A stretch of 64,000 nt of DNA from NCBI GenBank assembly GCA_963773065.1, contig CAVYZN010000011.1:224001-288000 (forward strand). The letters run 5' to 3'. Origin of the DNA: an uncultured Gammaproteobacteria bacterium (GTDB lineage: Bacteria; Pseudomonadota; Gammaproteobacteria; UBA9214). The translations under genes and the position numbers were made by a program. Below the pieces are notes generated by a model. It was not told the DNA's origin, ran no database searches, and was given only the letters and a program-made list of their open reading frames with translations. This document shows, one piece after another, positions 1,283 through 12,575 of the stretch (positions are counted from its first letter, which is position 1; each line of letters starts with the position of its first letter).

Positions 1283-1888
1283 ATGGCCGACCTGTTTCCC
1301 ACCGATCCTAAGCGTATCCGCGAGCGAATTTGCCGCTACGAACGCGCCCTTAAAAGGGAACTGGAGGAGGGATATGGTGGAGACGGCTACGGTAAGCGGT
1401 ATTTGCTAGGACCGCTCTACATGTTGATGGGCGATGTCGCCGGTGCTCTGGCATCATTCGACTGGTATGAAGACGCCTATCCCGACGATGGTGGAGAACC
1501 ATACCAATATTTGACCTGGGCACTGGCACTATTCCGGGGTGGTCGCAGAGAAGAGGCGTTCAACAAGCTCTACCAAACTATGCTTGAGAACCTTTATATC
1601 GTACCATTCCTACTCGGACGAAATCTCCGGCAACTTGATATTTGGCACGGTAGCAACTTCGAATGGATTGAGTACGCCGTTGAGGTGTCGCGAGAGTTAC
1701 TGAATCTATGGGACGACGCGGCCCTACAGTGGGCCCGAGAAGTTTCGGAGCACCCAGTTGTCATCGAAAAGGTAGCGCGTTATATCGCCATCCACCGGGA
1801 GTTGAAAAGCGAACCACCTGGGCCGCGGCGATCGGCCTTGGTGCATGAGTCTTTCGCCTTGAAAAAGGCCGCTATTCCATTACACTGA
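1283..1888 (+). CDS. hypothetical helical (TPR-like) protein
   Basis: Intact 201-aa ORF with a helical-repeat-like pattern (LGPLYMLMGDVAGALASF...WALALFRGGRREEA); no firm family. Confidence 0.6.
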   Translation: MADLFPTDPKRIRERICRYERALKRELEEGYGGDGYGKRYLLGPLYMLMGDVAGALASFDWYEDAYPDDGGEPYQYLTWALALFRGGRREEAFNKLYQTMLENLYIVPFLLGRNLRQLDIWHGSNFEWIEYAVEVSRELLNLWDDAALQWAREVSEHPVVIEKVARYIAIHRELKSEPPGPRRSALVHESFALKKAAIPLH

Positions 1889-2499
1889 CGGTTGCCTGTG
1901 GACAGCTACTTTCGCGTACTCTCTTGGTACCGGAGAACACGACAGTAGCCGTATGAGTATTTTGACCACGCGAGGATGGCGTTGTCGGCGGTTGCCAGTG
2001 CCTTGAAGAACTGATGCAATTGCTGGGTACGCGTGCGGTGGGCTTCAGGAAAGCTGTCCAGAAGGCAGGTCGCAACCGTCAGCGGATATGCCCCCGCCTG
2101 GACGGTGATCAGGAGCATCCACCTGCCAAGCTGACTCGGGATAAGCGCCCTGTCGTTATCGATGCTGGTGAAGGGCCACCTGAGTCCGCATCCGTCACCT
2201 ATTCAGCGAATTGGGTGGGATGCGGTGTAGATGCATTACTGGCAGCGCGCGCTCATGATTTAGGGCAGTCTGGCCCTTTATTGTTGTCGTGGACACAGTT
2301 GGTGAAATATTTTTCAGATCCTTACTATTCAAAACTGGCATTTCTCTGTGCTGTGTCCTATAAGAATTGACCAGAGAACAATGATCGACCCACGTGTTCG
2401 CTCGAGGTGCGTTATCAGCGGCCAATTTTCGTTCAAAGTACTGGCTCGGGCAACTTGCCATGATGGAATTCGATTATTTCATAAAAATGGAGGTGGAGG

Positions 2500-4593
2500 A
2501 TGGCACGCAAACCCCGTAAAACCAGTATGACGCCAGGTAAGGTCCGTGAAACAATGAGCCAAATTGCGAAAGCTGTTCGGCCTGTTGCAGCCGCTGGTGG
2601 CAAGCAACGCTTCCTGTATACCCGCCCGGACGGCATCGATTTTCGGGACAAAATGTACATCCCCACGCTGGTCGAGGTGCCGGTACAGCGCGAGTTAAAG
2701 GCGTACCGTGAGGCGGGCGCTCCGATACTCGATCAGGGGGAAGAGGGCGCTTGCACCGGATTTGGTCTTGCCACGGTTGCTCACTACCTGCTCTTAACCC
2801 GGATGGACTCCCGCGATCCTGCGCCTATTAGCCCGTTTATGTTCTATGACATGGCACGACGGTATGATGAATGGGCGGGTGAGGACTACGAAGGTTCGAG
2901 CTGTCGGGGAGCAATCAAGGGCTGGTACAAACATGGTGTCTGTAAGCAGTCGCTGTGGCTCTCAAGCTCCAAGAAGAACAAAGCTTTAAGCCAGGATGTC
3001 GTCGCCGACGCGGCAGTACGGCCGCTCGGTGCGTACTTCCGGGTCAATCACAAGGATCTGGTGGCGATGCACTCCGCCATAACGGAGACCGGGGTTCTCT
3101 ACGCAAGTGCCACGGTGCATACGGGCTGGGAAAAGGTGAAGTCCAACGGCAAGGTTCGCTTCGAGACGACGCCGCTGGGCGGCCACGCTTTTGCGATCGT
3201 CGCTTATGATCAAGAGGGGTTCTGGATCCAGAATTCCTGGGGAGGGGATTGGGGCCGTGAAGGTTTCTGCCACATCACCTATCAGGACTGGCTTGTCAAC
3301 GGAACCGATGTTTGGGCTGCCCGCCTTGGCGCACCCGTCATGCTACCCGAGAGTATACGATCTGCCGAGACAACAATGGTTGGCTCGGTACGCTCCGGGG
3401 CATTTGTATACAACGATATTCGTCCACACGTCATCAGCATCAAGAACGACGGTCAGTTGGATGAACACGGTGATATCGCTACCTCGCAGGAGATGGTAAG
3501 TGAGATCCTCCAGGAGGATTTCCTGCGCATTACGGCCGGTTGGAAGAAAAAGCGGTTGGTGCTCTACGCCCATGGTGGTCTCGTGGGGGAAGAGGCCGCC
3601 CTGCAACGGATCTCTGACTACCGCAAGGCGACGCTGGAAGCTGAGTGCTATCCATTGGCCTTCATCTGGAAGTCCGATTATTGGACCACGCTCAAGAATA
3701 TGCTGCTCGATGCAACCCAGCGTCGGCGCCCCGAGGGTTTTCTGGATAGCTCCAAGGACTTCATGCTGGATCGACTCGACGACGCGCTGGAACCGATCGC
3801 TCGGGTTTTCACCGGTAAGGCAGAGTGGAGCGAGATGAAAGAGAACGCACTCCTGGCCACCACCTCGGCCACCGGCGGTGCCCGCATGGTTGCGGACGAA
3901 ATCGCGAAGCTGGTTAGAAACAACGACGACGTGGAACTGCACATTGTCGGGCACAGTGCGGGCAGCATCTTCCATGCACCGCTCGTTCAATACCTCACGG
4001 GACAGGGCGTGATCGGCTCAGGGCCGATGGCGCCTTTAAAAGTCAAAGGACTGGGCTTGAAGATTGAGACCTGTACTCTCTGGGCACCGGCCTGTACGAC
4101 CCGGCTATTTAAGGAAAGCTACCTTCCTTCCATCGACCAAGGTCTGATTGACCGATTTGCGCTGTTTACACTCACCGACAAGGCTGAACAGGACGATGAC
4201 TGTGCCAATATCTACCACAAATCCCTGCTATACCTGGTATCCAACGCCTTCGAGGAGACGGCGAGAATCCCGATGATTCACCCCGACGGCGAGCCGATCT
4301 TGGGCATGCAAAAATGCGTCGATGGCGATGCTGCTTTAAAGAGCATTTTCAAGCAGAAGAAAGCCGATTGGATCCTGTCACCGAACATTAATTCCGTGGG
4401 TTCCGCGAACGCGTCTCAGTCGATGCACCACGGTGATTTTGATGACGACGAGGCGACCGTCAAGGCGACCTTGGCCCGTATCCTTGGAAAGTCCAGTGCA
4501 AAGAGTGATTTTACATTTCAACACAGTGCAATATCCCGTCGTGGTATTAGACGCCATATCGACGGTGAACAAGATGCTACACTCACCCGTTAG
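2500..4593 (+). CDS. C1 (papain-family) cysteine peptidase fused to a C-terminal alpha/beta-hydrolase domain
   Basis: DQGEEGACTGF (oxyanion Q, catalytic C), GGHAF (H), QNSWG (N); C-terminal YAHGGL and GHSAG nucleophile elbow; RBS ggagg upstream. Confidence 0.85.
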   Translation: MARKPRKTSMTPGKVRETMSQIAKAVRPVAAAGGKQRFLYTRPDGIDFRDKMYIPTLVEVPVQRELKAYREAGAPILDQGEEGACTGFGLATVAHYLLLTRMDSRDPAPISPFMFYDMARRYDEWAGEDYEGSSCRGAIKGWYKHGVCKQSLWLSSSKKNKALSQDVVADAAVRPLGAYFRVNHKDLVAMHSAITETGVLYASATVHTGWEKVKSNGKVRFETTPLGGHAFAIVAYDQEGFWIQNSWGGDWGREGFCHITYQDWLVNGTDVWAARLGAPVMLPESIRSAETTMVGSVRSGAFVYNDIRPHVISIKNDGQLDEHGDIATSQEMVSEILQEDFLRITAGWKKKRLVLYAHGGLVGEEAALQRISDYRKATLEAECYPLAFIWKSDYWTTLKNMLLDATQRRRPEGFLDSSKDFMLDRLDDALEPIARVFTGKAEWSEMKENALLATTSATGGARMVADEIAKLVRNNDDVELHIVGHSAGSIFHAPLVQYLTGQGVIGSGPMAPLKVKGLGLKIETCTLWAPACTTRLFKESYLPSIDQGLIDRFALFTLTDKAEQDDDCANIYHKSLLYLVSNAFEETARIPMIHPDGEPILGMQKCVDGDAALKSIFKQKKADWILSPNINSVGSANASQSMHHGDFDDDEATVKATLARILGKSSAKSDFTFQHSAISRRGIRRHIDGEQDATLTR

Positions 4594-4649: not shown

Positions 4650-5324
4650 ATGAATACTCCGGTCGAATTCGGCTTAGCTATAAGCAATTCCTTTCCGTCA
4701 GGCACGGGAAGTTTCAACTACGAGGGGTCGTTTAAAATCGTCGTACAGAATCTGGCCTTCGTGAAGCAGGTCTCGATTTGGGCGCGCGTGAGCTCGTTTT
4801 GGAAAGACATCAACGCGAGCTACGTGGCATCGCTTCCCGGAGGGCTCGAATTGTGGAGCGCTCCGGCGAGCAACAGCGAGAGCGCGTTTGTCGCGAAATA
4901 CGTCGTGAACGGAACGACGTATTGGGAAAACAACGACGGATGGGATTATTTGTTTCCGCAGGCTTTCGACGAGTTTGTCGTGCTGGCGGGCCGGCACTAC
5001 CCGGTGGTCCTGGGCACTGCGAGCCTGGGCGGCGGAACGCTGCATGTGGACGTTGGGGTGCAAAACCTAGCCTACGCCAAGGTGGTCGGCATCGTTTTCA
5101 CGACGAACGATTGGGCCACGGTGCAGGTTGCGCTTGGCAGTTACAGCTCGACGATGAAAAGTGGTCTGGAAGTCTGGCACCTCACCACGCCGGTGGGCGC
5201 AGCAGTCGAGGTGAAATTCGCCATTTTCTACCAGGTGTTGGGAACTGAAATTTGGGACAACAACTTTTGGCGCAACTACCGCGTGACGCCGTCCATCACC
5301 GCAAAGTGGGGCGACGCGCCGTGA
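4650..5324 (+). CDS. tandem CBM21-like carbohydrate-binding protein
   Basis: Two internal repeats: VQNLAFVKQV...YWENNDGWDY and VQNLAYAKVV...IWDNNFWRNY, matching the VxNLA..K.V and WDNN.G.NY hallmarks of CBM21; RBS aggagg. Confidence 0.75.
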   Translation: MNTPVEFGLAISNSFPSGTGSFNYEGSFKIVVQNLAFVKQVSIWARVSSFWKDINASYVASLPGGLELWSAPASNSESAFVAKYVVNGTTYWENNDGWDYLFPQAFDEFVVLAGRHYPVVLGTASLGGGTLHVDVGVQNLAYAKVVGIVFTTNDWATVQVALGSYSSTMKSGLEVWHLTTPVGAAVEVKFAIFYQVLGTEIWDNNFWRNYRVTPSITAKWGDAP

Positions 5325-5349
5325 TTAACCACAAAGAAATAATGACGTA

Positions 5350-6035
5350 ATGAACGTCGGCTGGGGTTCACCGCGGATTGTTGGGGAGCTGCGCAAGCTC
5401 CGCATTGATGTCGCAAAATCAACCGTGGAGAAGTAGCGGGTGCGATTCAGGAAACCACCGTCGCCAACGTGGAAGGCTTTTCTGAACAATCATGTTGTGA
5501 CTTGGTGTCTATCGATTTCTTCGTGGTGCCGACAGTAAGATTCAAGGTAATGTTCGTCTTGGTAGTCCTTGCACATCACCGTCGCAGGGTGGTGCACTTC
5601 AACGTCACGGCGCATCCCACCGCCCAGTGGTCCACCCGGCAGATCATTGAAGCTTTGCCCTGGGATATGGCGCCGAAGTATCTACTGCGGGACCGAGATG
5701 CTATCTATGGGAACCAATTCCAGAAGCGCATCCAAAGCGTGGGCATCGAAGAGGTTATCACTGCACCACGATGCCCTTGGCAGAATGCATTTGTCGAACG
5801 CGTGATGGGTAGCATCCGGCGAAATTGCCTGGATCATGTCCTCGTGTTGAACGATTGTCATCTGAAACGAATTCTTACCTGCTATTTCGACTATTATCAT
5901 CGCTGGCGCATGCACCTGTCGCTGGCAATGGATAGTCCTGAATCGCGATCGGTGCAACTGTCAGCGCTGGGAAAGGTCGTACAATTTCCAGAAGTCGGTG
6001 GACTACATCATCATTACGAACGGCTGACGGCGTGA
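5350..6035 (+). pseudogene. rve/integrase-core transposase remnant
   Basis: WGSPRIVGELRKL..VAKSTVEK*, frameshift, SIDFFVVPT...YLLRDRD...PWQNAFVERVMGSIRR...GGLHHHYER; internal stop. Confidence 0.85.
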
Positions 6036-6363
6036 TATGAGTTTTCGGGAAGCACAGACACAATCCTGCAAGATTTCGCGGTGCTGGCGGGCCAATGGCC
6101 TGCCAGCACCGTTGAACTACCTGTTGACCTTTGAGGAAAAGGGCGTTTATCTTTCCTAGCCGCTGGACTTGACCCGCTTCCGTGGACACTTCATCTTCAC
6201 AAAGAGAGGTGTTCGAGATGGCAAAAAAGCAGAGAATGTACACGCCGGAGTTCCGGCTGTTGTTGCCGGAGTAAAAGCGCGGCTATTTGCCGCGACTGTT
6301 TGCCGTATCCAGGCATAACAGCTTATGGACGCTATCGGTGGCGCCCGTATCAGTGCCGCCTAG

Positions 6364-7930
6364 CAGCCTGTCGGACTTAGACCGACACTGCTAAAATAAC
6401 ACCAACAAAACCAAGCGTAACAAACAAACATGGCCCGATTCCGCGAGATAGACCGAGACACCGACTTCCTGTTTCCGCCATCGGTACAGAACTGGCTGCC
6501 GAAGGAGCACCTGGCGCGCTACATTGCCAACGTGGTCGAGAGCCTGGACCTTGGCGCGATCGAACGCGTCTACGCAGGACGCGGCAGCGATGCGTATCAC
6601 CCCGCCACGCTGATGAGCCTGCTGATTTACGGCTATGCCACAGGCGTGTTCTCCAGCCGCCAGATCGAGCGGGCCACCTACGATTCGGTTGCCTTCCGGT
6701 ATCTGGCGTGCAACCGTCACCCTGATCACGACACGCTGGCGAATTTCCGGCGCCGCTTTGGCAACGAATTCAGTTCGCTGTTTGTGCAGGTGTTGCAGAT
6801 TGCCCACGCCAATCGCTTCAGCCAATTCGGCACGGTGAGTCTGGATGGCACCAAGATACACGCCAACGCCAGTCGGCACAGCGCGCGCTCCTATGGGCAC
6901 GCTGAGAAGCTGGAAGTGCACCTCAAGAATGAGGTTCAGGAATTACTTGCGCTGGCCGAGCAGGCGGATCAGCGGGGTGTCCCCGAGGGTATGAATGTTC
7001 CGGATGAGATCACGCGGCGGGAAGATCAGCTGCGTGCGATTGCGCAGGCCAAGGCGAAGATCGAAGCGCGGGTGAAGGAGCGCTACGAGCGGGAGAAGCG
7101 TGAGTACGATGCCAAGGTGAAGGCGCGCGAAGAGAAGGAAGCCAAGACGGGCAAGAAGCCAGGTGGCAGCGCACCGACTGCACCGACCGCGACGCCGCGT
7201 GCGCAAGATCAAGTGAATCTCACGGACGATGAATCCCGGATCATGAAGGTGGCGGCCGGTGGGTTCGAACAGTGCTACAACGCGCAAGCGATGGTGGACA
7301 CGGAGAGCCTGTTGGTTTTGGTGGCGGACGTGAGCCAAGAAGCGAACGACAAGCAACAGGTTGTGCCGATGCTGGAGCAGCTCGACACGCTGCCCGAGGG
7401 ACTGAATTTGCCCAAGGCGCTGCTGGCCGATGCCGGCTACTACAGCGAAGGGAACATCGATGCGTGTTGCAAGGCGGAGATCGAACCGCTGATCGCCGCG
7501 GGCAGGGAAGGCCACCATGAGAACTGGAAGACACGATTCGGCGAGCCGGAACCGCTGGCCGCGGATGCCACGCGTGCGGAGACGATGAGGCACCGCCTCA
7601 AGACACGCGCCGGTAAGAAAGAATACGCGCTACGCAAGCAAACGGTTGAGCCGGTGTTCGGCATCATCAAGTCGGTGATGAAATTCCGGCAGTTCATGTT
7701 GCGTGGTTTGAGGCAAGTTCGCAGCGAGTGGACGCTGGTGTGCCTGGCGTGGAATTTGAAGCGCATGGCCGTATTGCGTCCAAAATTTGCCGGATGCGGT
7801 TGAAATGCAGGAAAACCGGGGAATACTGCAGTCGATACGACACAGGACGCCACTGATAGGCTAAATATTGAGCAAATCGCAACCGTGGCGATCGAAATCC
7901 CTCGTCAGCGGTTTCAAGTCCGACAGCCTG
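6364..7930 (+). mobile_element. IS1182-family insertion sequence nested in the IS21-like element
   Basis: IRs cagcctgtcggactt / aagtccgacagcctg; CTAG duplicated at 6360-6363 and 7931-7934. Confidence 0.9.
6430..7803 (+). CDS. IS1182-family transposase
   Basis: LPKEHLAR, YHPATL..LLIYGY..GVFSSRQIE, PDHDT, DGTKIHANAS, ADAGYYS, RKQTVEPVFG motifs; intact 457 aa. Confidence 0.92.
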   Translation: MARFREIDRDTDFLFPPSVQNWLPKEHLARYIANVVESLDLGAIERVYAGRGSDAYHPATLMSLLIYGYATGVFSSRQIERATYDSVAFRYLACNRHPDHDTLANFRRRFGNEFSSLFVQVLQIAHANRFSQFGTVSLDGTKIHANASRHSARSYGHAEKLEVHLKNEVQELLALAEQADQRGVPEGMNVPDEITRREDQLRAIAQAKAKIEARVKERYEREKREYDAKVKAREEKEAKTGKKPGGSAPTAPTATPRAQDQVNLTDDESRIMKVAAGGFEQCYNAQAMVDTESLLVLVADVSQEANDKQQVVPMLEQLDTLPEGLNLPKALLADAGYYSEGNIDACCKAEIEPLIAAGREGHHENWKTRFGEPEPLAADATRAETMRHRLKTRAGKKEYALRKQTVEPVFGIIKSVMKFRQFMLRGLRQVRSEWTLVCLAWNLKRMAVLRPKFAGCG

Positions 7931-8134
7931 CTAGAACTCAAGGTCGTCATCGAACTGAAGCTCGGCCTGCTGCTCGTTTGCGCCCTGGGTAACGGTTTCC
8001 TCGCGAAGCAGATCAATGATCTGATCGCCATAGATCTCCCAGAGCTGATCTCGAAGCACCTCCAGGAATTCGATGACGGCATGGGCTTCCGGGGCGTCCC
8101 AGTAGGTGTATAAGCGTGTGACTTTCATCGACAT
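7931..8134 (-). CDS. small acidic accessory protein of the IS21-like element
   Basis: 67-aa ORF starting 2 bp after the istB stop, inside the element IRs; ends QQAELQFDDDLEF. Confidence 0.7.
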   Translation of the reverse strand: MSMKVTRLYTYWDAPEAHAVIEFLEVLRDQLWEIYGDQIIDLLREETVTQGANEQQAELQFDDDLEF

Positions 8135-8136
8135 GG

Positions 8137-8946
8137 TCAGCGGTCTCCTGCGGGCGTTCTTGGAGTGGCGCTACGCGTGGATTTCGTGGATTTCTTCTTC
8201 CTGCTGGCGCGCTCCTTCGCCTCTCGGAAGCGATAGGACTCGCCCTCGAGGACGATGATCTCGGAGTGATGCACCAGGCGATCGACGATTGAGATCACGC
8301 AGGCTGCGTTGGGGAACACCTCGTTCCACTCGCCAAAGGGTCGGTTTGTGGTCACAATCGTTGGCTTGAGCTCATAGCGTTGATTAACGATGTTGAACAG
8401 CAGATCCGCATGGCGACTGCCGTAGGAGAGGTAACCGACTTCATCGATCACCAGCACCTGTGGATGCGCGTAGTGTTTCAGGCGTCGGCGCAAGGCGTTG
8501 TCACCCTCCTGTGCCGCCAGGTCCCCGAGCATCTGGGCGGAGTTGACGAACAAGGCGCTGTGTCCCTGCAGGACGGCGTGATGCACGATGTTCTGTGCGA
8601 TGGTGGATTTGCCGACGCCGTTGGGCCCGACCAGAATGACGTTGGTGGCGTCCTTGATGAAGTTGAGGCGCATCAGCTCTGAGACGGCCGCCTTGTCGCA
8701 CTGCGCGGGCCAGTCCCAGTCGAAGTCAGCGAGGGGTTTGAAGCGGCCGATGTGCGCCGCGCTCAGCCGTCGTTCCAGACCGCGGCGCTTGCGCTCGCTG
8801 TCCTCCCACTGGAGCAACGCCCTCACCCAGTCGATCTGCGGGTCGCTCAGCTCCTCCCAGTGCGCAACCAGCCCATGGAGCTTGAGCGCGAGCGCCCGCT
8901 GCTTGAGCGCTTCCTGAGGGATCCCTGCATCAGCGGTTCTCGTCAT
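8137..8946 (-). CDS. istB: IS21-family helper AAA+ ATPase IstB
   Basis: Walker A GPNGVGKS, Walker B LVIDEVGY, TTNRPF..W, DRLVHH..GESYR; probable start ATG 8946 overlapping the istA end. Confidence 0.93.
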   Translation of the reverse strand: MTRTADAGIPQEALKQRALALKLHGLVAHWEELSDPQIDWVRALLQWEDSERKRRGLERRLSAAHIGRFKPLADFDWDWPAQCDKAAVSELMRLNFIKDATNVILVGPNGVGKSTIAQNIVHHAVLQGHSALFVNSAQMLGDLAAQEGDNALRRRLKHYAHPQVLVIDEVGYLSYGSRHADLLFNIVNQRYELKPTIVTTNRPFGEWNEVFPNAACVISIVDRLVHHSEIIVLEGESYRFREAKERASRKKKSTKSTRSATPRTPAGDR

Positions 8947-10512
8947 CGGTGCGCTCCTGTTGCTCTGCCATCTCGGCGGCGTCGTCGGTGTCGAGTTGAT
9001 CGTAGGCCGCCAGGGAGGCGGGACGCACCACGATGTTTCTCGCCTTGGCGTTGTCCGGCAGCACGATGGCCAGCGGTGGCGGCAGGTGGCGCTGCTCACG
9101 CGCTCGCTCCAGCGCCTGGCGCACCGCATTGGGGTGCGGAACCCCGTTGGCGAGCGCCTCGGCGATGGCGTGCTCGAGCGCGCTTGCACCGTATTCGTCG
9201 AGCAGCCGGGTCAGCTGCGAGACGACCTGGCTCAGGCGGTTGCCCCGCTCGGCCGCCTCGCGCAGCAACTGGCGGCTCGACGGCGCCGCGTGCGCCAGGC
9301 GGTCCTGACCGCGGTGCTGGCGTGCGCCGCGCTTGGCATCGATCAACGCCTCGATATGGCCCGGATCCTCGATCTGCTCGCCCTTGCCATAGACGCGCCG
9401 GTGCTCGGCAATCACCGCGCCGGCGTCAAGCACCCGCACCTGGGTCGGCGAGGCCAGGACCGTCACGGTGCGCCGCACCTGGGTGTGCGGCACCGAGTAG
9501 TCATTAAGATCAAAGCGGATATACGGTGTCTTGCCGACACTCACTTCGAGGCGTTCCTCGGTGGGATAGGGATTGTCCGGTAAGGCAATGAGCTGCGCGC
9601 GCTCCTGCTCGAAGGCGTCCCTGACGGTGATAGCGGGGTCTTCCGGACACGGGCGGTTGGCACTGAGGCCCGAGTACCAGGCCGCGGCCTGCGCATTCAA
9701 GTCCTCGACATCCGACCATTGACGACCGGCAAAGAAGCTGTCGCGGATGTAGCGGATCGCCCGCTCGACACGGCCTTTTTCATTGCCTCGCGCGGGCGCC
9801 ACCGGCCGCGGCTCGAAGCGATAGTGTGCCGACAGCGCCAGCAGCGTGGGGTGAAAACGGATCGCCTCGCCCTGGCGCTCGAGCACGGCGGAGCGCAAGT
9901 TATCGTAGAGCAGCACCCGCGCCACACCCCCGCAGGCGCTGAACGCCGCGACGTGCCCGCGCAGGAAGTTGTCCATGCGTTGGTTGAGATAAAAGCGCAG
10001 GAAGATCTGCCGGCTCCAGCTCAACACCATCACGAAGGCCATCAACGGGCGCTGCGCCCGGCCGATCTGTACCTGCCCGAAGTGCCCCCAGTCGATCTGT
10101 GCCTCGGCAACTGCTCCTGCGTTGCTCTACCTCCTGCATCCATGCAGTCGTGCTCGCCCGGCAGGGTTCGCAGTCGCAGATACGCCTCACTGGGCTTGCG
10201 CGGGCGCAGCTGCGCCACATGCGCCCTGAACTGGCTCGCCCCACCGGCGTAGCCGCGCGCCTGCGCCATGGCATACAGGCGTGCGGCGGTGAGCCGGGGA
10301 AACTGCGCGAGCGTCTCGATGATCATCGGGTGGTAGGGATCGACGATCGAGGCTTGGCGGGTGCGCTCGGCTTTGGGCAAGCCCGCCTGCGAGAGCACCC
10401 GATCGACGCTGGAGTGATGAATACCCAGTTGCGCGGCAATGGTGTTCACCCCCCAGCGCTCCACGAAGTGATAGCGCAGAATCTTCGCTTCCTGTTCCTT
10501 GTCGATCGTCAA
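8930..10512 (-). pseudogene. istA: IS21-family transposase IstA, frameshifted by a 47-bp insertion
   Basis: N-terminal HTH (IAAQLGIHHSSV), PGE..QIDWGHF, LYDNLRSAV, NEKGRVER. Removing 10104-10150 restores one 511-aa ORF. Confidence 0.9.
10104..10150 (-). repeat. 47-bp double-hairpin miniature insertion
   Basis: cgactgcatggatgcaggaggtagagcaacgcaggagcagttgccga interrupts codons GAG CA|G GCA CAG (E-Q-A-Q); hairpins ctgca-tgga-tgcag and gcaac-gc-agga-gc-a-gttgc. Confidence 0.8.
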
Positions 10513-10539
10513 TGGCTGTCTCCTGTTGTCGCGCTTCGG

Positions 10540-10965
10540 TCACGGTGCTCGCGGTTGTCGAGCGCGTTCGGTGGGTCGAAGAAACTCCCGTCTCAACCAG
10601 GGCTCGCATTCACAACCACAGACATGGCAATAAATCGCGGTAGGGGCGCCGCTGCGCGCGTCTTCCTGAGGACTTTCCGGGTTGTTCAATGCGCAGAGGA
10701 GTAGAACAAGCGCCACTATCGGAAGGGAACCCTGATGCGTTACTTTTTGTCTTTGACGCGCACGGAACCGGCCCTGACGGGCGGCGTTGGCCAGGCGACC
10801 CCGGCGCGTCGAACAGTAACGGGATCCGGCGCGTCGCAGCGACGCCGTTCGGGCCCGTTCAGCGCAACCGCGGGCGCAGTAGAGGTTCCCCCGGTCGCAC
10901 TGTCGACAGACAAAGACCTGGCAATGGCAGCCGGCACAATGGTACAGACGGGCACTGGGTTTCAT
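10540..10965 (-). CDS. Cys-rich, Arg-rich putative zinc-binding accessory protein upstream of istA
   Basis: CAGC-x6-CRQC-x6-CARGC, basic segment RRGRLANAARQGRFRARQR, C-terminal CHVCGCEC; inside the element IRs and co-oriented with istA; probable ATG 10965. Confidence 0.7.
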   Translation of the reverse strand: MKPSARLYHCAGCHCQVFVCRQCDRGNLYCARGCAERARTASLRRAGSRYCSTRRGRLANAARQGRFRARQRQKVTHQGSLPIVALVLLLCALNNPESPQEDARSGAPTAIYCHVCGCECEPWLRREFLRPTERARQPRAP

Positions 10966-11010
10966 CGGCACAACCGGCCGATGAGCGCTGGATAATGACC
11001 ACGCCAGGTG

Positions 11011-11108
11011 CGACACTACGGTGGCTGTGCGAAAGCACGGTTGGGGGCGTAGCGCCAGGGTTGACCGTCAAATCATGGCTGGCGTTACGCCTATCTCCTC
11101 GGCCAGCC
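11011..11108 (-). ncRNA. candidate two-domain structured RNA in the IS21-like leader
   Basis: Two adjacent stems (ggctggccg/cggtcaacc and tggcgctacg/cgtagtgtcg, with G.U pairs on the minus strand), each enclosing an inner hairpin followed by agcca. Confidence 0.5.
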
Positions 11109-11729
11109 TGTCTTACCAACTTTCAGATTCTCTGTCACCTGATTCGGGTGACTCCGCGCCCCGTCAAACCTCGTTCTTGCACACCGAGTCGTCAACGCAG
11201 ACCTCAAGTGCAGGGGTGCGCCTCGAATACAGTCGCGGCAAATAGCCGCGGGTTTTGGTCGGCACTTACATCCGGCAACAGATGGTTGAGCTGGTCCGTG
11301 CGGGCCGCAAGTATGCGGAACTGGAAAAGGAGTTTGGCTGCACCGGCTGGTCGATCCGGCAAAGGGTCAAGCAGGCCGATCGGGATTCGGGTCGGGGAGA
11401 CGGTGGCCTGACGAACGAAGAGCGACAGGAGCTGATGCGGCTGCGGCGTGAGAACCGGCAGCTCAAGCTGGAGCGGGAGATCCTGTCAAAAGCCGCGGCT
11501 TGGTTTGCGAAGGAGAGCACCGCGACACCGAAGCGCTCTTCGGATTCGTGAAGGCACACCAGGCCCATTATCCGGTACGTGTCATGTGCCGGTTGCTCAA
11601 GATCTCCCAGAGCGGCTTCTACGCATGGGACGGTCGAGCGTTGTCGGCGCGTGCGCGCGAGGACATCGGCCTGACGGCGCTGATCCACGGTATCCATCGC
11701 CGCTCCAAAGGCGCGTACGGGGCGCCATC

Positions 11730-11922: not shown

Positions 11923-12336
11923 CTAGGTCTCCAGCCAGTTTTCCAACTTCAACCTGGGGACTCGGGAAAATTCACGGGTATTCGCGGTGACCAGCGTAAG
12001 GTCCATCGCGAGGGTATGCGCCGCAATCAACAGGTCATTGGGCCCGATAGGCATGCCCTGATGTGACAGGTGATGGCGTAACTCACCGTAATGCCGGTCT
12101 GCCGGGGGTTCCAGGGGAAGGATTTCCATGGCGGAGAGAATCAGGTCGACTGTCTGTGCCAGTTTCTCCGAGCCTGATTTGATCGCACCAAACCGAAGCT
12201 CCGCGGCCACGACAATGCTGGTGCAGACGGCGTCCTCACTTGTCGTGGCAATTCTGCTTGCCACCGTGCCCTGCGGATGGCGGATCAGGTTGGAGAGGAT
12301 GTTGGTATCGAGCAGGTAACGGAGCGCCATGCTCAA
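11923..12336 (-). CDS. vapC: VapC PIN-domain toxin
   Basis: YLLDTNILS, SIVVAAELRFG, IGPNDLLIAAH, LVTANTREFSRV. Confidence 0.93.
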   Translation of the reverse strand: MSMALRYLLDTNILSNLIRHPQGTVASRIATTSEDAVCTSIVVAAELRFGAIKSGSEKLAQTVDLILSAMEILPLEPPADRHYGELRHHLSHQGMPIGPNDLLIAAHTLAMDLTLVTANTREFSRVPRLKLENWLET

Positions 12337-12575
12337 AGCGTTACATCGTCCAGTGGCGGCAGGTCTTCGTCCACGTCCGGAAAGGGTATCTCCAGCGGTT
12401 CCAGGGATGAGAGCAGGGCAAGCAGCCGCCCCTTTCTGACCGGTTCCACGATCAGGCGGTTTCCCTCCTTGCGCAAGATCGCCTCATCCCCCTCCAGCTC
12501 AAACTCACGCGGGATGCGCAGTGCCTGGTTGCGCCCGTTGCGGAACAGGCGGACATGTCGTTCAGGGTGGGCCAT
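12333..12575 (-). CDS. vapB: VapB antitoxin (AbrB/SpoVT-type)
   Basis: LFRNGRNQALRIPREFEL; overlaps the vapC start. Confidence 0.92.
   Translation of the reverse strand: MAHPERHVRLFRNGRNQALRIPREFELEGDEAILRKEGNRLIVEPVRKGRLLALLSSLEPLEIPFPDVDEDLPPLDDVTL

Follow-up and report, generated by a model that had tools for sequence, protein, structure and literature searches.

The element of interest lies at positions 6259–11270 (minus strand) of a 64,000-nucleotide stretch of DNA from an uncultured gammaproteobacterium (assembly GCA_963773065.1, contig CAVYZN010000011.1, positions 224,001–288,000); this whole stretch is referred to below as the window. It is an IS21-family insertion sequence of 5012 bp as present, or ~3395 bp minus two later insertions. 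An earlier note, made from the letters of the window alone, had proposed that the element carries parts beyond the transposase gene istA and the helper ATPase gene istB, and that these extra parts—a structured leader, a Cys/Arg-rich open reading frame (ORF) and a small acidic ORF—are integral rather than random passengers. Comparison with relatives bears this out: the three parts are integral, co-inherited components of a distinct IS21 lineage, which is widespread, ~3.4 kb in length and apparently undescribed. The roles that the note put forward for them (target selection, regulation or host-factor recruitment) are putative. The conserved unit consists of (i) terminal repeats with a hairpin core, (ii) a leader of ~150 nt, and (iii) a packed operon of four genes encoding a Zn-ribbon/Arg-rich protein, IstA, IstB and a protein of ~65 aa. 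We read the window element as a dead copy of this lineage, with an operon gated by the leader and an adaptor protein whose tail resembles the tip of the single-stranded DNA-binding protein (SSB), and give that reading a probability of roughly 0.6.

An IS21 lineage with four co-inherited genes

Co-inheritance is evident from a scan for close relatives of IstA, in which one genome was taken per species. The scan returned 44 loci with 55–88% IstA identity, spanning Gamma-, Alpha-, Beta- and Deltaproteobacteria, Anaerolineales and one Fodinibius metagenome-assembled genome. Every one of the 36 loci in which istA is preceded by at least 470 nt has the Cys/Arg-rich ORF (hereafter, the Cys ORF), and the small ORF is found in 29 of the 31 loci with room after istB; the two exceptions have, at this place, another IS-like ORF right after istB (locus L045) or a 105-aa ORF ending LDLPF (L041). 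All four genes occur in the same order, on the same strand and with the same spacing in 27 of the 28 loci that have room on both sides. Further, the pairwise distances of the four proteins correlate (Mantel r 0.74–0.87 across 20 distinct elements; for every pair, none of 999 permutations reaches the observed value), which is the expectation for co-inheritance as one unit. The co-occurrence and co-evolution with istAB that had been suggested as a check are thus both seen, and the leader, described below, covaries.

The association also holds when approached from the other side. A profile of the Cys protein, run against 400 genomes of the same class, found it in 12 of them, the richest having 8 and 10 matches; G039 and G141, which are among the 12, are flagged as unpublished. 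A search centred on the Cys ORF found istA directly downstream in 25 of 30 loci. The five loci without an adjoining istA comprise one intact solo gene (L061), one truncated solo gene (L073), one weak, unconfirmed match (L069), and one decayed place that was counted twice (L068 and L076). The intact solo gene (G140:C30:34282-37680, ORF 1495–1896, minus strand) lies in a low-GC genome, encodes a 133-aa homologue of the Cys protein, has neither istA nor a leader, and neighbours a cytochrome-type gene and a glutathione S-transferase-like gene; it may be a domesticated copy. In a plasmid collection, the Cys ORF was found in 35 of 72,556 records, and these are the same records as give the best IstA matches (57–65% identity). 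One more of the top IstA records, from P. fungorum, holds a 5'-truncated copy. At least 5000 plasmid records contain more distant IstA homologues; the distribution of the Cys ORF is thus restricted to the IstA clade of the window element. Plasmids of Burkholderia, Aromatoleum and Paraburkholderia also carry the four-gene layout.

Public annotations call the two accessory ORFs "hypothetical" or leave them uncalled. A literature search, which covered neither ISfinder entries nor paper supplements, found no description of an IS21 architecture with four genes and a leader. Element boundaries are likely mis-set in many genomes, because annotation pipelines label all three extra parts "hypothetical" or do not call them at all.

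The ends of the window element form a 47-nt inverted repeat, 79% complementary (6253–6299 and 11229–11275), with TGT...ACA termini. The left terminal inverted repeat (11229–11270, minus strand) begins TGTAAG and contains the hairpin-forming core CGCGGCTATTTGCCGCG at 11234–11250; the right one (6259–6299, minus strand) has the same core at 6278–6294. This core is kept in relatives; only one core repeat is seen per end, a point of difference from canonical IS21. It was observed that the core of each repeat (11233–11251 on the plus strand; 6278–6294) is a GC-rich hairpin followed, reading outward, by a run of T, and thus resembles a terminator; judging from this sequence, it could block transcription leaving the element. 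The inverted repeats and the duplicated TCCGGC had been noticed before, and both are found here: TCCGGC, read from the sequence, flanks the element at 6253–6258 (left copy) and 11271–11276 (right copy). IS21 target duplications range from 4 to 8 bp. Read by eye, duplications of 5–6 bp, without a consensus, flank the window copy and the elements at 13 of the 25 related loci where both junctions are visible. The duplication had been put at 6 bp; TCCGGC does occur twice in the window, but the duplications of relatives are mostly 5 bp, and so the window duplication may consist of 5 bp plus one base that matches by chance.

Insertion occurred into an IS3-family orfA on the plus strand, which starts at 6218–6258, resumes at 11271–11551 and is followed by an orfB fragment to ~11820. 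As had been predicted, removal of the element restores this gene: joining 6218–6258 to 11277 onward gives a single open frame, and an IS3 transposase model is matched by the right-hand part (model positions 3–86) and then by the following fragment (positions 90–157). The predicted length of ~3.4 kb, once the nested IS1182 and a 47-bp insert are discounted, also holds. A second copy, on another contig of the same genome (G000:C14, locus L002), has ~100% identity, carries the same 47-bp insert without the IS1182, and measures 3442 bp, giving ~3395 bp without the insert; relatives measure 3384–3452 bp in 14 of 16 delimited loci, and 3647 bp in the other two.

As originally described, the leader, Cys ORF, istA, istB and acidic ORF are co-oriented, all on the minus strand. 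The istA gene is in two pieces: a 5' part with the helix-turn-helix (HTH) region (10152–10512, minus strand; TTG start; NF033546 positions 2–121, E 2.8e-20) and a 3' part with the DDE core and the Mu-transposase C-terminal barrel (8930–10104, minus strand; NF033546 positions 138–294, E 3.3e-44; PF22483). Each piece falls under the whole-protein cutoff of NF033546 because the gene is split by a frameshift. The istB gene, for the AAA+ helper ATPase (8137–8946, minus strand; PF01695, E 7.8e-56; NF038214, 209.9 bits with the cutoff at 200), begins before istA ends, and its product has a Lys/Arg-rich C-terminal tail. The element therefore has the hallmarks of IS21, namely an IstA-type DDE transposase, IstB directly downstream, and TG.../...CA ends with a short duplication. 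Canonical IS21 elements are roughly 2–2.6 kb and hold istA and istB; the present lineage, with its four genes, leader and larger size, is a divergent IS21 branch rather than a canonical member.

The structured leader and the Cys/Arg-rich protein

Of the 300 nt that separate the left end from the Cys ORF, the 3' half is more conserved than the proteins. This half holds the conserved structured leader (10957–11107, minus strand; 163 bits to covariance model R1). The earlier note had placed a structured leader at 11011–11108; the structure is real, but it is longer than was stated, running from 11107 to 10957. Its helices include P2 (11091–11046), the P3 hairpin (11038–11027), the variable P4 hairpin (11024–10999) and the P5 hairpin (10983–10963), all on the minus strand. 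In a MAFFT alignment of 18 sequences, five helices pair in 92.1% of cells, compared with 23–42% when the partners are slid by 1–3 columns; 13 pairs show two-sided changes, and none of 500 shuffles reaches the observed covariation score. A 26-sequence alignment gives 93.5% of cells paired (slid controls, 23–38%) and compensatory changes in 25 of 31 pairs, figures that are biased towards the structure, this alignment having been fitted by the model. Model R1, which was built from the 18-sequence alignment, scores at least 69 bits in 29 of 53 scanned sources; the long-range helix P2 alone is found in four alphaproteobacterial elements (27–35 bits), and weak matches occur in more distant elements.

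A minimum free energy fold recovers P2, P3 and P5. The last of these (CATCGGC/GCCGATG) includes the ATG of the Cys ORF, and in an Aromatoleum element a hairpin of different sequence contains the start codon. An N-terminal extension of the Cys ORF from the GTG at 11016 was considered and rejected, as the frame is not conserved and locus L014 has an in-frame TAG. The leader has no match in Rfam 15, in which the single hit, at chance level and outside the element, was BTH_s1 (E 0.97). In metatranscriptome run X1, in which a tenth of the sampled words was found, contigs cover two pieces of istB, the 47-bp repeat and the end with the left inverted repeat, but no part of the leader; the coverage of the 47-bp repeat derives from other genomic copies, and the run permits no conclusion on transcription.

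Directly behind the leader, the Cys ORF (10540–10965, minus strand) encodes a 141-aa protein, which was characterized by way of 75 homologues, their alignments and an AlphaFold2 (AF2) model. The homologues share 43–84% identity and are of similar length throughout. Invariant or nearly so are CxxC-x6-CxxC-x6-C-x3-C, the Arg-rich stretch of a helical hairpin, KVTHQGS (invariant) and, at the C-terminus, a further CxxC. In the model (mean predicted local distance difference test, or pLDDT, 79.6), a zinc ribbon at the N-terminus is followed by two long antiparallel helices, then by a disordered linker, and lastly by a confidently predicted C-terminal knuckle, which folds back against the other parts. 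No match to the protein was found in Pfam, NCBIfam, PHROG, PADLOC, PDB sequence profiles or the ESM Atlas. Fold searches returned a best E of 3 with Foldseek against the PDB and a best Z of 4.2 with VIA-align, the latter to unrelated helical proteins, and a search for longer fused forms gave no match, which is weak evidence. The position of the gene next to a structured leader suggests that its product is a nucleic-acid-binding regulator, one that probably binds the leader or the terminal hairpins.

The small acidic protein and the choice between readings

The fourth gene (7931–8134, minus strand) starts 2 nt past the istB stop and encodes a 67-aa protein whose tail ends QFDDDLEF; in almost all relatives, the istB stop and the start of this gene coincide or lie a few bases apart. 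There are 42 close homologues (63–69 aa), and a profile that takes in divergent members matches 1116 cluster representatives at E ≤1e-3 (212 at E ≤1e-10). AF2 predicts one helix (residues 14–53) and a disordered tail with a pLDDT below 50. No match was obtained in Pfam, NCBIfam, PHROG, PADLOC, PDB sequence profiles or the ESM Atlas. A complex prediction for IstB and the small protein scored 0.00; it was run without controls and has no bearing either way.

The SSB of the host ends PDFDDDIPF, and the tails of the small-protein relatives end ELEFDDDIEF, GFDDDIPF, DDDIPF, DDDLPF, DPPF and similar, DDDIPF/LPF being the most frequent type. The best 149 hits include 127 full-length representatives: 112 of them have a C-terminal Phe, which is preceded by Pro in 62 and by [ILV]-Pro in 36. 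In addition, a Q..[LIMV].[FL] motif occurs in the last 20 residues of 40 of the 127 (compared with 3.6 ± 1.9 in shuffled tails), and in 29 of these 40 it ends exactly six residues before the C-terminus; in the window protein, the motif reads QAELQF. The pattern resembles both the beta-clamp-binding consensus (QL[SD]LF or QxxLxF) and the C-terminus of the Pol III alpha subunit. To judge by sequence, the tail is a candidate docking peptide of the SSB C-terminal (SSB-Ct) type, in likeness rather than by membership, and the proposal that the small ORF is a replisome mimic gains support to that extent. According to PMC11253446, chi, DnaG, Pol IV and RNase HI dock on the SSB-Ct.

The small protein is not confined to IS21. 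On an Undibacterium plasmid, a homologue ending DDDESF directly follows an AAA_22/TniB-like ATPase, together with an IS481-like DDE transposase; the small protein thus travels with transposon ATPases of two unrelated kinds, this one and IstB. The Undibacterium locus (sp. KW1, NZ_AP018440.1, 82598–93500) contains repeated units, some as partial tandem copies, each composed of a 185-aa Cys-containing hypothetical protein, the IS481-like transposase, the AAA_22/TniB-like ATPase and the small-protein homologue, here of 62 aa. An hhalign comparison of the 185-aa upstream protein with the Cys family detected no relation, and the transposon type looks uncharacterised. A tblastn search of plasmids with the 67-aa protein returned three records, the query being too short for absence to count. 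As a further observation, one 98-aa protein (P0108, from a 1-Mb contig) has the first ~28 residues of IstA fused in frame to the small protein; it looks like an internal-deletion derivative.

With regard to target choice, RNA-guided or fixed-sequence targeting was considered and rejected. Identical elements within one genome (L014, L015, L016 and L019) lie at unrelated sites with different 5-bp duplications, which makes a fixed-sequence target, and hence an RNA-guided one, unlikely. The genes flanking insertions are likewise diverse: IS3, IS1634 and IS21 genes, a TOTE primase-helicase, an MFS transporter and a thioredoxin-like protein.

We propose the following mechanism. The leader would form the 5' untranslated region of the operon, with its last hairpin locking the start codon of the first gene and so keeping expression low or conditional. 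The Zn/Arg-rich protein would be the likeliest binder of the leader RNA or the terminal hairpins, acting as an autoregulator. The small protein would serve as an adaptor: its helical N-terminal part would attach to the transposition machinery (most likely to the AAA+ ATPase whose gene always precedes its own), and its flexible acidic tail (...DDD[IL]xF, preceded by Q-x-x-L-x-F in about a third of family members) would imitate the SSB C-terminal tip and dock on a host factor whose usual partner is SSB or the sliding clamp. Docking of this kind would link integration to replication forks, or bring in gap-repair or restart machinery. Translational control by the leader and recruitment of host replisome or repair factors by the tail are both putative functions, read from sequence patterns. 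More tentative still, and in our estimation somewhat improbable, is a general form of the proposal, in which this IS21 lineage and at least one unrelated DDE and AAA+ transposon encode a mini-adaptor that couples the target-capture ATPase to a replisome or repair hub through SSB-tip mimicry, often with a clamp motif, and in which a structured RNA and a Zn/Arg-rich RNA-binding protein gate expression or join the transpososome.

A number of observations count against the leader-gated, adaptor-carrying reading, and each is taken here with the alternative on which it bears. The tail ends LEF in the window copy and PEF in the second copy, both without the Pro-Phe of SSB; 15 of the 127 representatives lack a terminal Phe, and only 40 have the clamp-like motif. 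The AF2 models of the Cys protein and the small protein gave no known fold. Insertion sites and flanking genes are diverse, and the orientation of insertions relative to dnaA in two multi-copy genomes (5 co-directional, 9 opposed; small numbers, with the terminus assumed) shows no clear bias. This lack of target or orientation bias speaks for an alternative in which the accessory proteins are internal regulators, such as copy-number controls or transposition inhibitors, and the tail acts within the element rather than on host replisome proteins, for example by mimicking DNA or competing for binding, either at the IstB surface that contacts DNA or IstA or at the Arg-rich Cys protein. Small regulators are common among IS families (InsA of IS1 is one), the small gene is translationally coupled to istB and also follows another transposon ATPase, and the proposed partners are basic, the IstB tail being Lys/Arg-rich and the Cys protein Arg-rich. 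However, the tail converges on the exact SSB tip (DDDIPF or DDDLPF) in many members and frequently holds a clamp-type Q..L.F motif at a fixed distance from its end, neither of which an acidic DNA mimic needs; we consider internal regulation unlikely.

Other points concern the leader. A rival long-range helix, P1 (GCCGAGGAG with CTCATCGGC), would release the Cys ORF start codon from pairing, and covariation cannot distinguish it from P5 because both are almost invariant. Paired leader positions show 18 G-U pairs and 22 A-C mismatches, counts that favour neither strand as the one that folds, nor RNA over DNA. Finally, a promoter scan found no sigma-70-like promoter on the strand of the element. 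The equal frequency of G-U and A-C and the lack of a predicted sense promoter fit an alternative in which the leader acts as DNA or as antisense RNA: as an internal site for the transposase or the Cys protein, as a cruciform, or as an IS10-like antisense RNA over the start codon. Helix P2 fits as well, being nearly palindromic, scoring on both strands and holding the inverted repeat TTGAC-G-GTCAA. Yet the helices change by compensation with pairing kept, which is not required of a double-stranded protein site; the leader lies directly upstream of the first start codon and overlaps it; and a distant member also places a hairpin at the start codon, though its sequence differs. A DNA or antisense role thus seems doubtful to us, and we retain the leader-gated reading.

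The last point against that reading is the intact Cys-protein gene that stands alone, without istA. That the extra ORFs are passenger genes, serving the host or countering its defences (for example, as a decoy for SSB-dependent nucleases) with no role in transposition, is highly improbable: this solo gene exists, both proteins are without a known family and an SSB-tail decoy could protect any foreign DNA, but gene order, spacing, overlaps and co-divergence with IstAB persist across several classes and phyla, even where IstA identity falls to ~55%, the passenger genes of insertion sequences are usually variable, and the small gene recurs after a second, unrelated transposon ATPase.

Later damage, surroundings and known systems

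The two later insertions in the window element are of different kinds. The first, a nested IS1182-family element (6360–7934, plus strand; transposase 6430–7803, NF033551, E 2e-108), has 19-nt inverted repeats (6360–6378 and 7916–7934) and CTAG at each junction. The right-hand CTAG includes the TAG stop of the 67-aa ORF, and so this ORF stays whole. The second is a 47-bp repeat within istA (~10105–10151, strand not assigned) that resembles repetitive extragenic palindromic (REP) sequences, is missing from three intact relatives and frameshifts the gene. About 25 further copies of the repeat family are found across the genome, in which the arms of two hairpins vary in a compensatory manner. With 10 matches to the Y1 transposase family in the genome, an origin of the REP type, involving REP-associated tyrosine transposases (RAYTs), is plausible.

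The repeat shows several further features. Among copies of 47–50 bp, the arms read GGTAAC/GTTACC, GGCAAC/GTTGCC or GGCAAT/ATTGCC, and some copies are in tandem; examples lie at G000 C11:171846-171897, C5:41164-41215, C32:164198-164248 and C26:55326-55376, with ~20 others. It is abundant among contigs from one metatranscriptome, and its position in the window copy, within a coding sequence, is unusual for such repeats. REP-like palindromes (of CCCCACGGGCGTGGGG type) also flank the Sedimenticola copy at locus L013 on both sides (3282–3322 and beyond 6727).

The second genomic copy has a GCTGG duplication and lies inside an IS1634-family transposase gene, the halves of which meet at model position 140. 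Given the identical 47-bp insertion in istA, both genomic copies are probably unable to move on their own. Both also sit inside other transposase genes (IS3 and IS1634), and at loci L016 and L026 IS21-type elements are nested in one another. In the window, the element is preceded by an ORF with a CBM_21 domain and an rve_3 integrase fragment (4650–6035, the fragment at 5469–6035) and followed by a PIN-domain ORF and a small ORF in the usual antitoxin position, a VapBC-like arrangement (11923–12575).

IS21 is a structural model of how an ATPase assists transposition, and its elements are viewed as two-gene machines. The work above adds a conserved four-gene branch with a covarying leader and two protein families of unknown function, the smaller protein alone having more than 1000 cluster representatives. 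If the tail does act as an SSB tip, it would constitute a compact, transferable module for host recruitment, bearing on when and where transposons integrate and on how mobile DNA exploits the pockets of the SSB interactome. Should the general mini-adaptor proposal also hold, it would be a new, portable route by which simple insertion sequences couple their integration to host DNA replication.

Each part of the lineage has a partial counterpart among known systems. The leader is like the fold-back inhibition of IS10 and IS50 in placing a hairpin over the initiation codon of the first gene, but it is far larger and has several helices as well as invariant loops. With the Zn-finger repressors of the IS1 InsA type, the Cys protein shares its small size, Zn-type basic character and place at the 5' end of the element, but it has no detectable resemblance to InsA or to the zinc ribbons in Pfam. 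Like TniQ/TnsD of Tn7-like elements and CRISPR-associated transposons, it is a Zn-finger accessory beside a DDE transposase and an AAA+ ATPase; unlike for TniQ/TnsD, insertion sites of the lineage share no target, and no similarity between the proteins was found in sequence (Pfam, NCBIfam) or in fold, the absence from the fold search being inconclusive.

The small protein can be set beside TnsE of Tn7, a large DNA-binding protein that reads the beta clamp at replication forks: both are accessory factors with a replisome-hub motif that accompany an AAA+ regulator (TnsC and IstB, respectively). The two have no sequence relation, the motif is here carried by a 65-aa protein, and the window lineage shows no detectable orientation or replicon bias. 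With the SSB-Ct, the small protein shares a disordered linker and an acidic tip that closes with a hydrophobic residue, one more residue and then Phe. It is otherwise unlike SSB, having no OB (oligonucleotide/oligosaccharide-binding) fold and no match to PF00436 or any other Pfam family, a length of ~65 aa and a single helix, and the penultimate Pro is replaced in about half of its members, the window copy included.

The closest comparison is with IS21 itself. PMC11208146 gives istA and istB alone as the canonical layout, assigns the known IstA-IstB contact to the IstA beta-barrel and treats the role of the IstA C-terminal region as undefined, which leaves room for further partners. Canonical elements (IS21, IS5376) and the window lineage have in common the HTH, DDE and barrel regions of IstA, an IstB, TGT/ACA termini, a 5–6 bp duplication and overlapping istA and istB genes. 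To this shared core the window lineage adds a covarying leader of ~150 nt, an upstream gene for a Zn/Arg-rich protein and, downstream, a gene whose small product has an SSB-like tail.

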